Assembly: GCF_006345805.1 (NCBI RefSeq)
Contig: NC_043002.1
Location: 13,516,001-13,580,000, forward strand
Source of the DNA: Octopus sinensis
Taxonomy: Eukaryota
DNA length: 64,000 nucleotides
Direction: 5' to 3'
Part shown: positions 1,422 through 56,972 of the stretch, piece by piece
Layout: the number at the start of each line of letters is the position of its first letter
Numbering within the stretch: position 1 is the first letter of the stretch
Program-made: the position numbers and the translations under genes
Notes under the pieces: generated by a model
Databases searched by the model: none
Told to the model about the DNA's origin: nothing
What the model saw: only the letters and a program-made list of their open reading frames with translations

Positions 1422-1770
1422 GGCTGCCCCCTCGTTATCGAGTATGGCCATTGCACGAAGCTTAACTATTATTAGTGCTGTGATCGAATGTGACTTTTTA
1501 GCCCAGCTAAAGATCTACAATATCTTGTACAGAATTGGCAGCTAAAACCTTTACCGGTAATAGCCGGCTGTAGTTGTACCTTTGCATGTCGTTTAAGTCC
1601 TCCAGCTGAATTACACTCTCTTCCACATGCCCGACAGATATGATTAGTATGGTGTGTAACACCACCACCAGTGACCAGGTTGTCACTCATCTGTCTCACT
1701 TTAGAACTACGAAGATGACTCTTGAGTCCAGCTTTACTGAGGCAGGGTCTTGCACAGACACTGCATGTCA
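1334..1770 (-). mobile_element. 5'-truncated RTE-type LINE 3' end with three C2H2-like fingers and a (TAA)n tail
   Basis: ORF 1472-1801(-) encodes CSVCARPCLSKAGLKSH, CRACGRECNSAGGLKRH and CQFCTRYCRSLAGLKSHIRSQH*, followed by a short 3'UTR and (TAA)n. A second copy is at 28110-28367. Clade assigned from the C-terminal CxxC..S..GL..H motif. Confidence 0.7.
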
Positions 1771-2107
1771 CATACATACATCCATACATACATACATTCA
1801 AATATACTCATCGTTGGACGAGCGTGACCATCGTTGACAGAGGTGTCAGCGACACTCGTGCAAGGCTTTTAAGTCACGTGCGTCTTGCACGACACCACAA
1901 TGGCTCGTACTAGCAATATCACGAATCCCTGAAACCAGCAAAGGGCAAGATAGCCGGCTCAGTAGAGCAGCGTGTTTTATACATGTGCATATGTCTAGAC
2001 AGGCAAATATATGTATGAGTGTACATACATAAAACAGAATATAAAGAACTGCATGAGCACTGACTCAAAATACTCGCACATACATAAACATACATACACA
2101 TCTCCCC

Positions 2108-12721: not shown

Positions 12722-12821
12722 NNNNNNNNNNNNNNNNNNNNNNNNNNNNNNNNNNNNNNNNNNNNNNNNNNNNNNNNNNNNNNNNNNNNNNNNNNNNNNN
12801 NNNNNNNNNNNNNNNNNNNNN
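12722..12821. other. Assembly gap (100 N)
   Basis: Run of n. Confidence 1.
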
Positions 12822-20416: not shown

Positions 20417-20488
20417 GGCTGGATAACTGAAGAGATGGCGGCGTGTATTTCCACCTCGGCATCCGAAACTTGGAGTTTTATCGTAGCT
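20417..20488 (+). ncRNA. Type I hammerhead motif, canonical core
   Basis: GAUAA-CUGAAGA-GAUG...CAUC-c-GAA-ACU(ugg)AGU-U-UUAUC. Helix I extends GGCU/AGCU. Homologous to the 53.2-53.4 kb fold-back. Confidence 0.7.
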
Positions 20489-20999: not shown

Positions 21000-21850
21000 A
21001 TGTAATATTTTTAAGTGCTTCTTCTTTGAGGATTGATCCTCTGACATCTCAATTCTGCAACTGCATTTGTATCAGGTTGGCTGTGAATATCATGCTAAAA
21101 TTCTTGTATTAATTTCTCTTTGGTAATAAACCTTGAAAGCTGAAATGACACCCAAGTCAGTTGAATTAACGTTGCAGCGTTTGAAGGAAGGAAATTACTT
21201 TGATGTTCTTTAGTGACAAATTATTTCTGTGTGTTGTGCAACTGTCAACTGTCAAGACAATTTTTCTCTTTAATTCCAAATCCCACAGAACTAACCAGTT
21301 GTTAAATATCACTGGAGTCTTCCACACAGTTTCATTAAACCAATAATGAACAGTAAACTTTTGACATTCTTGAAGCAACGATGATTTTAATTTTTTTTCC
21401 GATCACTCCAAATTCTCATTCCTGCTTCTTCATAGCGCAAAAGCCAACTGTCATTTGCTGCTTTGAAGATTTAATTCCTGCGACATTTTTGTTTTTAAGC
21501 AAATAAGTTATCTTGGGTATTGCACGAAAAAATAAAACATCGTTTCATCTGAGTTGTAAATATTCTCAGGAGAATATTCAGTAATAATGTTAGGCCATTT
21601 TGTTTTAATCTCACATCAGCTGATGAGAAGAGAAAAACCCAGAAAAAAGGGAAAGTTCAACCATTTTTCTTCGTTAAGTACATGATATTCAATCGCCATA
21701 GCTCCATATCAAACCACCAGTCAGTGTCAAAATTACTTGAGCCATTTCTTTTCCAAAAGATGGATGTTTCTTTTCAGTAAAGTTGTTCCGATGTTCGCTG
21801 CGTCTTTCACCTGTCTTTCGAGCAATTTTCAGAGAAGTTTACACACATTT
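21000..21850 (-). pseudogene. Decayed pogo/Tigger-type (DDE_1) transposase
   Basis: Minus-strand fragments ITEYSPENIYNSDETMFYF, FNNWLVLWDLELKRKIVLTVDSCTTH...LKNIKVISF and DLGVISAFK; frameshifted. Confidence 0.85.
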
Positions 21851-43796: not shown

Positions 43797-44176
43797 AGCG
43801 CAGGAGTGGCTGTGTGGTAAGTAGCTTGGTTACCAACCACAAGGTTCTGCGTGGCACCTTGGCAAGTGTCTTCTACTCTAACATTGTGAGTGGATTTTGG
43901 TAGACGGAAACTGAAAGAAGCCCGTTATATATATATATAACGGCTAGAGTAGAAGACACTTGCCATATATATATATATGCATGTGTATATGTTTGTATGC
44001 CTGTCTTTGTCCTACCAGCATCGCCAGACAACTGATGCTGGTGTGTTTACGTCCTCGTAACTTAGCAGTTCGGCAAAAGGGGCAGATAGATTAAGTACTA
44101 GGCTTACAAAAAATAAGTCATGGGGTCGATTTGCTCGATTAAAGGCGGTGCTCCAGCATAGCCGCAGTCAAATGAT
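43797..44176 (+). mobile_element. SINE family A
   Basis: Head to near the tail; abuts the PLE fragment. Confidence 0.85.
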
Positions 44177-45260
44177 GTGGGGCCCATTCTCGTTCCCATG
44201 GCCACTCCCGAGAGTGGTAAAAATCACCAGCGAACGAGAAGCAGTTGAGTGAGAAGACTAGTTCAGCCACACGAACGAGTGTGGTACGTCGGATTGGGGG
44301 CTGGGTCGAAGGTCAAAGAAACGTTGGAGTGCACGCAGCCTCTCGTGGTGAGGGATCACCGTGTATAGGCTCTAGATGTCTAGAGTAAAGAGAAGTTTAG
44401 AGAGGCCAGCAGAGAAGAAGAAAGAGTTGAACAAACGAAGCGCATGGTTGGTGTCATGGATGTAAGAGGGCAGGGAAGCCACCAGAGAGCAAGGATACGG
44501 TCAAGTTATCTGTAGATGAGTTCGGTGGGGAAGTTACAGGCGGAGACGATGGGGCGGCCAGGCTTGTTAGGCTTGTGGATTTTGGGGAGGAAGTAAATTG
44601 TAGGGGTGTGAGGGGTGTTCGGACAATGAAGTTGGAAGCGGTGGGGGAGAAGGGAGGAGGAGATGAGGTCATGGATAATGGAGGACACAGTCTGTTGGTA
44701 GCTGTGCGTGGGGTCAGATGGCAGAGGGCAGTAGAAGTGGGTGTCTTGAAGTTCAGAGAGTTTCCGCCTTGTAGAGGTACACGCGCCGCAGCACCACGGC
44801 CATACCCTTGTCGGCCGGTTTTATGATGATGTCAGTGCGGCGTCGGGGACATTGAACGGCTGAGAGTTCGGCTGGGGAGATTTTCAGATGACGGGGACGC
44901 CTGGAAAATTTAAACCGGTCCAGAGCGCGCAGGCAGGTGCCCGCAAAAAGACCGACTGCTTGGAACTGGTCAGGAGCTGGTGTCTTCTGGGATGGTCGGC
45001 GGCCCAGTTCAGTGAGGCAGTCCTCCTCATTGGATGCTGGTGGAGTGTCGCAGAAAAGCGCACACAACCTAACACGGCGCACAAAGCCGTGGATATCGGC
45101 ACGAGTCTGAAATTCGTTGCTGGATGGAGTGAGGAGGATGAAGCGCAGACCCCTACTGTGGAGGAAGCGTTCTGCCCCAGAGAGAGGAACATCTGGAGGA
45201 ATGGTAACAACAGACGGAAGTGGAGAAGGGGTGGATGGGATAGAAGTAGGAGTGGTGGAT
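44177..45260 (-). pseudogene. Penelope-like element reverse transcriptase, decayed
   Basis: VVTIPPDVPLSGAERFLHSRGLRF, FVRRVRL, IIIKPADKGMAVV, YFLPKIHKPNKPGRPIVSACNFPTE, LFTLDI*SLYTVIPH, ELVFSLNCFSF and GVAMGTRMGP; has stops and frameshifts. Confidence 0.92.
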
Positions 45261-49597: not shown

Positions 49598-50312
49598 GAA
49601 ATTATTGTATACAGTGCTCAGGTGCACCACAACTTGTCAAAAGTGCGTATAAAACATATACAGTAATGTACAAATGTCTGGAAAGTGAACAGTATATGAG
49701 TCAGATATATGCTTGCGTGTGTATGGAGGGGAGAAAATCAGGTGTAGTGTTGGCGAATCTCAGGAAGCATGGAAGTTTTGAAGGATGCAGTGCGCCGACA
49801 ACTAACAACTGATGGTGGCAGTTTGTTCCATGCTTCAGCAACTCTTAGCGTGAAAAAAATGTTTCCGAAACACATGGGAGCAGTGCTGTTTTCTGACTTT
49901 AAAAATATGTCCACGGGTGTTAGACAGGTGGAGTTTGAAAAGGTACTTAGAGTTATTGTTAGTAAGATGGTAAATAATTTTATGGGTGTCTGCCAAGTCA
50001 GTTGCCAGACGTCGGAGTTTCAATGTATTCATGCCCAGGGGAGTGAGGCGTTCAGAATATGGCAAATGCCTGATGGAGGGTATTCTCTTGGTTGCACGTC
50101 GCTGAACGGTTTCCAGACGATTAATATCCTGGGAAAGATAGGGGTTCCAGACCGGGGATGCAAATTCCAGCTGAGGCCACACCATAGCTATATAAAGCCT
50201 CAGATAGATAGCCGGAGAGCGGCTCACAAAGGACTTGGTAAGTGATGCCAAGACACCCTCAGCCCTCTTGGCAATTTTAGCAATGTGCTTTGTCCAACGC
50301 AAATCGCTGTAC
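49598..50312 (-). mobile_element. 5'-truncated CR1-type LINE (ORF2 C-terminus plus 3'UTR)
   Basis: DLRWTKHI...LEFASPVWNPY...INRLETVQRRATK...YSERL..L...RR...D...NTRGH. Confidence 0.92.
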
Positions 50313-50496
50313 ATGTCTATCAGAACGAACAACCGCGTGGATATTCTATTATCACCTTGTCTGTAGGATCTTCTTAAATTTCTTCAAACCACTCGAAGTG
50401 TTTGGTATTTTCAACAGATATTTTCAGAAAATGTAGTTCTGATGTAGTTTCGCATACTAATATGAAAATTTTATTCATTTTTAAAAAAGAAATTAG

Positions 50497-53683: not shown

Positions 53684-54131
53684 TGTATGTATGTATGTAT
53701 GTATGTATGTATGTATGTATGTATGTTGTATGTATGTATGTATGTATGTATGTATGTATTCTTCTGTCTTTCTTTTTGCCTATATTTTCTCGACTTATGA
53801 AGTGCATCTCAGGGAAACATCGAGCAGCGGCAGCGGAACAAATAACATCGGTTTAATAGATTAAATAATTATACTCTGGAACATGTAGTGAGTACTCTTA
53901 TATTTGTTATAATCGCTCCACATGCAAATATACACGCATACGCACTAATACACGCACATACATGCACACAGACAGGTATATACATACACGCATGTATTAC
54001 ATACTCTGAACATATTCATTACACACACACATGCACATGCGGCAAAAAAAAGACACACACGTACGCACGCGTGCGCGCACACATGCATTGATATACACGA
54101 GAAATTACGATAAACTTAGTTTTGTATCATT

Positions 54132-54233
54132 TGTTCCCTACGCACGTTTCTCCATTGTGGCTATTCGCAACCGCGGCATAAGACGTTCCAAGTGCAAGTG
54201 GATGCCGAACCACGGTAGATCATCAGGACAACA
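54132..54233 (-). ncRNA. Type I hammerhead ribozyme, canonical core, extended helix II
   Basis: UGUUgUC-CUGAUGA-UCUA.GUGGUU.CGGCAU...AUGCCG...AGCCAC.UGGA-GAA-ACGUGCGU-A-GGgAACA. Confidence 0.75.
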
Positions 54234-54246
54234 CTTTATTGCATTG

Positions 54247-54281
<35 letters not shown>

Positions 54282-56928: not shown

Positions 56929-56972
56929 ACACAACGTTTCGGCTGATATACCTTCCAGCCTTCATCAGGTGT
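56929..56972 (-). ncRNA. Minimal type I hammerhead ribozyme, canonical core
   Basis: ACAC-CUGAUGA-A-GGCUG(10 nt)CAGCC-GAA-ACGU-U-GUGU. Family fragments at 19890-19952 and 57830-57880. Confidence 0.75.

Follow-up and report, generated by a model that had tools for sequence, protein, structure and literature searches.

A decayed copy of a dispersed repeat carrying a hammerhead-derived motif with a predicted long rod as helix II

The 64,000-nt stretch of DNA analysed here (the window) carries on its minus strand, at 54132-54233, a hammerhead-derived motif that is real and lies in a decayed copy of a dispersed repeat. We put at about 0.6 the probability that this copy is a decayed member of a family of ~150 bp units with a rod-like helix II, likely a Penelope-like stub, with self-cleavage that is likely poor or absent in this copy.

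A complete core on the minus strand

All core letters of a type I hammerhead (CUGANGA, GAAA and UH) were found by inspection and by a descriptor scan of the window (Table 1), and three helices can be closed round them: an open-ended helix I with 6/7 positions paired, a basal helix II with 10/12, and a helix III of two pairs. U16.1 corresponds to 54140, A17 to 54139 and the C2.1-G1.1 pair to 54227/54138, while helix I includes one G-U pair and a G.G mismatch at 54229/54136. The preliminary description had claimed that every core nucleotide is present and that the site is GUA; both claims are borne out, and the strand, which it did not give, is the minus strand. GUA is a natural, active triplet whose rate is somewhat below that of GUC (PMC1636495; statements resting on cited papers refer, here and below, to the parts of those papers available to us). 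An AAUAAA hexamer stands at 54235-54240 (minus strand), 9 bases ahead of the core, and the Saccoglossus (2) motif in Fig. S3 of PMC4209133 has a similar A-rich word at the same place.

Table 1. Features of the motif, its repeat and a neighbouring gene remnant
Feature	Position	Strand	Basis or remark
Homology extent to the dispersed repeat, ~150 bp stub (decayed copy)	54099..54245	-	contigs, whose loose ends stack up at 54099/54100 and at 54245
U/A-rich tail after the ribozyme	54099..54131	-	~7-9 bases near 54116-54120 apparently missing relative to many copies
Helix I, 3' strand	54132..54138	-	sequence, descriptor scan, fold
GUA triplet	54139..54141	-	sequence; predicted cut between 54139 and 54138
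Helix III	54140..54147	-	monomer: two pairs and GUGC loop; dimer: 8-pair duplex with two G-U
Core box G12-A15.1, GAAA	54147..54150	-	sequence and descriptor scan
Helix II domain, 69 nt	54151..54219	-	predicted unbranched rod in four segments (12, 6, 5 and 4 positions)
Competing helix, 3' arm (predicted)	54170..54177	-	partner 54216-54209; three private letters needed
Core box C3-A9, CUGAUGA	54220..54226	-	sequence and descriptor scan
Helix I, 5' strand	54227..54233	-	6/7 pairs with 54132-54138
(CA)n run, 5' border of the element in this copy	54249..54277	.	sequence
Broken 5' part of a Penelope-type reverse transcriptase gene	~44100-45214	-	stops, frameshifts; tblastn

The descriptor combined the core with helix I, a short helix III and a helix II that had to close with four pairs and could reach 100 nt. 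At each of three strictness levels it matched the window once, at this motif, compared with means of 0.0125, 0.0025 and 0.0025 matches per shuffled window in 400 block-wise dinucleotide shuffles. A looser version matched the window four times, so that the above-chance result rests on the strict levels, at which a complete hammerhead core is commoner here than expected by chance. Rfam, the scan that the preliminary description had named as a check, returned no match in the window at the gathering threshold and no hammerhead at E values up to 10; as it also misses the textbook short core at 56968, our control, this negative result is uninformative.

The window reads as animal genomic DNA and is microsatellite-rich, with 36% G+C and many short interspersed repeats, and the motif sits within ~150 unique bases between the (CA)n run and CA-rich sequence below 54095. 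A textbook minimal hammerhead of the Penelope type occupies 56976-56928 (minus strand; core 56968-56936) beside a (TAT)n run, with CUGAUGA, an extra A, a 5-bp helix II, GAAAC-GUU and a helix I of ~4 pairs. Further short hammerhead-like cores of unrelated sequence, partly decayed, lie at 62930-62901 (-), 40794-40771 (-), 38678-38654 (-) and 20427-20469 (+); the short core pattern has five matches in the window, including 56968, against 0.58 expected. Other landmarks are the end of an ORF at 49838-50383 (-), a mobile-element remnant that has no Pfam match and is presumably LINE-like, a DDE_1 transposase piece at 21169-21402 (-; E 4e-7), a zinc-finger piece at 1475-1807 (-), also a mobile-element remnant, and an assembly gap of 100 N at 12722-12821.

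An old dispersed family and the rod of its helix II

By blastn the window holds neither a second nor an inverted (fold-back) copy of the motif, as the preliminary description had stated. That statement applies to the window alone: sequencing runs contain tens of copies that are 80-95% alike. Contigs of four of the 24 listed runs were aligned to 54090-54248 at 80% likeness. Three DNA runs, which represent the same copies rather than independent samples, yielded 61, 77 and 60 contigs, none of them 95% or more alike to this copy (9 per run at 90-95%, the rest at 80-90%); a fourth run, guessed to be RNA, gave three contigs of other copies, which carry no strand or end information. Summed over contigs, the depth is highest at 54132-54137, where it reaches ~50-65 times the depth of a single listed contig; this indicates tens of copies, an estimate in which alleles may be counted twice and copies beyond the 80% threshold are missed. 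Beyond 54099 and 54245 the loose ends agree at just 0.47-0.62, with a few contigs possibly sharing ~10-15 more bases above 54245, and no joints between repeat units occur among the contig alignments listed for the four runs. These statements rest on evidently filtered family tables, which list 27 of the 202 pieces, 23 of the 141 rows of loose ends and other letters at just five places. The motif thus belongs to an old dispersed family of tens of diverged copies of ~150 bp.

At 54121, 20, 25 and 9 contigs of the three DNA runs have loose ends with a continuation that, by eye, is shared. Also by eye, 54240-54245 (minus strand) can pair with a downstream segment that other copies have before 54121 and this copy lacks; such pairing would lengthen helix I past an internal loop, although the indication is weak, a six-pair match arising easily by chance. 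The stretch of this copy was found in seven of the 24 listed runs, under three organism labels and from four studies, and no RNA run is listed among them. Pattern scans for relatives elsewhere gave 0 loci in one scan of metagenomes and at least 118 in another, and at least 120, 0 and 14 loci in scans of viral contigs; against 252 pattern-matched loci, blastn of the motif reached a best E of 0.36, with no homolog, and the single locus of the 252 that fits a long-helix descriptor does so weakly and in a chance-like manner.

Helix II is what makes the motif unusual. When it was closed by constraint, the best fold of this copy alone was an unbranched rod, and it is from this constrained fold, first obtained before the copies were compared, that the register was taken. 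In register, the 27 positions comprise 18 Watson-Crick pairs, four G-U pairs and five mismatches, with U10.1-A11.1 as the closing pair and no extra base after A9. The preliminary description had reported a long helix II running through three segments with G-U pairs: the length (69 nt, a rod of up to 27 pairs) and the G-U pairs agree with our analysis, whereas four segments fit better than three.

Other copies differ from this one at 11 places in the 69 bases, each in several contigs. At five of these places the other copies form a Watson-Crick pair where this copy has a mismatch or wobble (54215, where the variant makes up about half of the depth in other copies, 54181, 54180, 54175 and 54170), five differences fall in loops (54206, 54184, 54179, 54173 and 54166), and one, at 54198, loses a lone pair outside the register; no register pair is broken. 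Under a null of 11 random changes, at least five gains with at most one loss arose in a fraction of 1.15e-5 of 2,000,000 trials (mean 0.9 gains and 6.0 losses; at least four gains alone in 0.5%). Contigs running past the loose-end stacks at 54165 and 54169 (14+7, 13+12 and 9+5 contigs in the three DNA runs; agreement 0.55-0.76) continue in the same register and free of gaps. The 11 places were read by eye from the listed majority letters and the loose-end stacks, so that the letters come from 30-letter majority cells and the 27 listed pieces rather than from whole copies, and the gains are one-sided, short of covariation in both partners. Three helix ends were extended in register after the comparison, and two of the gains (54175 and 54180) rest there. 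Left uncounted were a single-contig loose end before 54209, whose changes would make one pair weaker and reverse the gain at 54202/54170, and a change at 54155 in two contigs, which would pair with either letter at 54215. The comparison supports an ancestral helix II that was probably a long unbranched rod, better paired than that of this copy. A branched form of helix II, in which a palindromic loop would be of the kissing type, was noticed by eye in a family majority cell; it may be an alternative fold, but we prefer the rod, which engages those bases in a larger number of pairs.

The fit between rod and core bears on whether the two belong together. The rod starts on the base right after CUGAUGA and ends on the base right before GAAA, and its basal part reaches the pairing given above with p=0.002 when the 69 bases are shuffled (p=0.04 for positions 5-12 alone). 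An ordinary hairpin element, such as the remnant of an inverted repeat, with a hammerhead core by coincidence, could be argued from the several matches per window of the loose descriptor, the 100 nt that the descriptor permitted for helix II and the lack of support from Rfam; we regard it as very unlikely, given a p of ~0.003-0.013 per window for the strict descriptor, the exact abutment of rod and core, and the better pairing of the family at that place. A protein-coding remnant is less credible still, to the point that we reject it: although a minus-strand frame (54248-54141; 36 codons) is open over the whole motif and meets its stop at the cut site, phmmer against 1.84 billion proteins found two matches, both to multi-stretch repetitive proteins with 11-19 residues covered, and two overlapping frames have no Pfam match.

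Predicted folding and activity of this copy

Left to fold freely, this copy does not adopt a hammerhead (z = +1.33), and its fold is dominated by an eight-pair competing helix, three of whose pairs require letters private to this copy (54170, 54173 and 54175). Over four flank lengths, the pair probability of basal helix II is 0.006-0.10, and forcing the hammerhead fold costs 8.0-11.3 kcal/mol with helix III closed and 7.2-10.5 kcal/mol with helix III open for a dimer, compared with 1.2-2.7 kcal/mol (helix III open) for the short core at 56968, which served as internal control. As the folding program scores neither the hammerhead core nor tertiary contacts, 'inactive' is a prediction; on this modelling, self-cleavage of the copy is likely weak or lacking. 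The preliminary description had ranked the motif as the best intact candidate. Intactness is contradicted by the free fold, by the loss of five Watson-Crick pairs of helix II relative to the family and by the gain of the competing helix, and the 56968 core, whose predicted fold is far better, arguably has the stronger claim to being intact within the window.

Could this copy nonetheless be an active ribozyme, cutting a minus-strand host transcript as a monomer, as a dimer or with the help of a protein? Its core letters are all intact despite 11 differences from the family among the 69 bases of helix II, five runs under three organism labels contain the complete stretch (three of the five possibly being the source of this DNA), and a protein-dependent Penelope hammerhead is known (PMC11167929). 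We nevertheless think activity improbable. Besides the predicted misfolding, the loss of pairs relative to the family resembles neutral decay, chance alone would leave a core of ~15 letters unchanged in a fair proportion of copies this diverged, and the preliminary description had picked the best-looking one.

Helix III consists of an A-U pair followed by C15.2-G16.2 (54146/54141). The octamer ACGUGCGU pairs with itself at 8/8 positions, the two in the centre being G-U wobbles; its energy is -8.8 kcal/mol, compared with -9.8 and -13.3 kcal/mol for two perfect palindromes. This is in keeping with the earlier statement that this helix is self-complementary by way of wobbles. Two pairs with a four-base loop are the helix III size typical of invertebrate hammerheads (PMC7229834), the match of our motif to that size being our own count of pairs. 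Coral and mussel hammerheads cut as monomers at 0.8 and 0.1 per minute, an axolotl motif with the same helix III size cuts to 22% in an hour and better as a dimer (PMC7229834), and most invertebrate type I motifs show monomer cleavage (PMC7761336). As helix III is of typical size and comparable motifs cut as monomers, dimer folding, with which the motif had been called consistent, would be possible without being required, and a tandem partner for this copy is absent from the window.

Origin, significance and comparison with known hammerheads

Type I hammerheads in Penelope terminal repeats are mostly dispersed, variable single motifs with a palindromic helix III and low activity (PMC4209133). 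Our motif shares with them the self-complementary helix III region (8/8, two G-U) and the many dispersed, diverged single copies; it has neither the extra base between 9 and 10.1 nor the G10.1-C11.1 pair of the Penelope consensus, and exceptions that lack these features exist in Fig. S3 of PMC4209133. In an active Penelope element, reverse transcription starts, and insertions end, a short way 3' of the hammerhead, which needed protein to cut and whose cutting was dispensable for insertion (PMC11167929); the stub described here ends ~40 bases past the cut site, in agreement with a start just 3' of the hammerhead. In one contig of the presumed RNA run, the sequence at 54156 is joined to what looks by eye like part of the family's downstream flank in inverted orientation; we count this for the Penelope link because inverted truncated copies are typical of Penelope elements (PMC8557442). 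We also count the reverse transcriptase piece listed in Table 1, 9 kb from the motif and at most a putative parent; it is 44-50% identical by tblastn to proteins with reverse transcriptase and GIY-YIG domains. A short interspersed repeat near 44100 appears to truncate it. Beside the motif itself no reverse transcriptase or endonuclease remnant was found, 21 Penelope-type proteins matching by tblastn only at 44-45 kb and at a 4 kb spot (E=0.44), and this particular copy is not flanked by an ORF with reverse transcriptase and GIY-YIG.

On the reading that we favour, the ancestral RNA would have cut itself after GUA, either as a monomer or via a self-pairing helix III. By analogy, a Penelope-type reverse transcriptase may have initiated a short distance 3' of the ribozyme and terminated early, and such early stops would have scattered stubs into AT/CA-rich DNA. 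Later point changes are predicted to have weakened the rod and built the competing helix in this copy, which, if transcribed, would mostly misfold.

We hold it to be unlikely that the family is instead a non-coding element, retrozyme-like or SINE-like, that has master copies of its own, possibly tandem arrays that yield small circular RNAs; this copy would then be a solo, decayed monomer rather than a Penelope terminal-repeat stub. The canonical size of helix III (two pairs and a tetraloop, above the minimal form) and the lack of an ORF adjoining the motif agree with such an element, and solo monomers occur in retrozyme families, which are themselves considered descendants of Penelope repeats (bioRxiv 10.64898/2026.07.22.740005), so that this explanation grades into the Penelope one. 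It is weakened by the lack of a tandem copy in the window, of joints among the listed contigs and of any copy more than 95% alike, and by a unit of ~150 bp, at the low end of the 150-450 bp of animal retrozymes (PMC7229834).

Hammerheads are familiar from the repeats of animal retroelements, and a lone decayed copy would carry little weight. A cephalopod genome is among those with hammerheads on record, with 235 Rfam matches in the giant squid (PMC6962438). It is the size of helix II that sets the family apart. The usual helix II has 4-5 bp, some viral motifs have 6-8 bp (PMC13725137) and Penelope motifs 7-8 bp (PMC4209133); the domain found here is about three times the longest in a reference set of 56 motifs, and the family's paired length about twice that of the sole long natural case found in the literature. 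Our literature search revealed no helix II of this length in any animal type I hammerhead. The Penelope and Terminon variants reportedly treated in 2017 by Lunse and by Arkhipova may include long-helix-II forms, so that the claim of novelty is provisional. With that proviso we offer, as a speculation with the odds clearly against it, that the family represents an undescribed class of animal type I hammerheads with a rod of ~27 pairs, whose well-paired members would still cut, with an internal loop of the rod replacing loop 2, and whose rod might be a functional module, bound by the element's reverse transcriptase or offering a double-stranded target to editing or small-RNA enzymes. Such a class would be invisible to Rfam and to published short-helix descriptors, and genomic counts of hammerheads would be too low. 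Were well-paired copies to cut, they would widen the natural size range of hammerheads, reveal a class missed by standard scans and provide a natural test of substitutes for the contact between loop 1 and loop 2.

Akin to the hammerheads of Penelope pseudo-LTRs (Cervera and de la Pena 2014, PMC4209133), our motif is of type I, has a short helix I and a self-complementary helix III, and lies in AU-rich flanks as one of mostly dispersed single copies with a high sequence spread; Saccoglossus (2) of Fig. S3 in that paper also shares the absence of the extra base, the GUA site and a palindromic loop. The Penelope set differs in its helix II domain, which exceeds 23 nt in none of the 56 rows of Fig. 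S3 and has 69 nt here, and in a G-C where our motif, which has no adjoining Penelope ORF, has U10.1-A11.1. With the canonical type I hammerheads of animal non-LTR retrozymes and Schistosoma Sm-alpha, the motif has in common a helix III of two pairs and a tetraloop, a helix I of 6-7 positions and no extra base after A9; those hammerheads, however, have a helix II of 4-5 bp, a contact between loop 1 and loop 2 and tandem arrays (PMC7229834, PMC7761336), whereas our motif lacks both a terminal loop at that distance and a tandem arrangement. A naturally long, segmented helix II, of 5, 4 and 4 bp with internal loops, is found in the sCYDV-RPV (+) satellite RNA, although this is a plant satellite RNA and no animal genomic repeat, with a 6-bp helix III, a closed helix I and about half the paired length (PMC1636495). 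Finally, the discontinuous Clec2 hammerhead resembles our motif in that a big insertion in one arm hides it from standard searches, but it is of type III and carries an insertion of 150-1500 nt in helix I, in a 3' UTR (PMC6155905), whereas in our motif it is helix II that is elongated, with pairs all along the arm.
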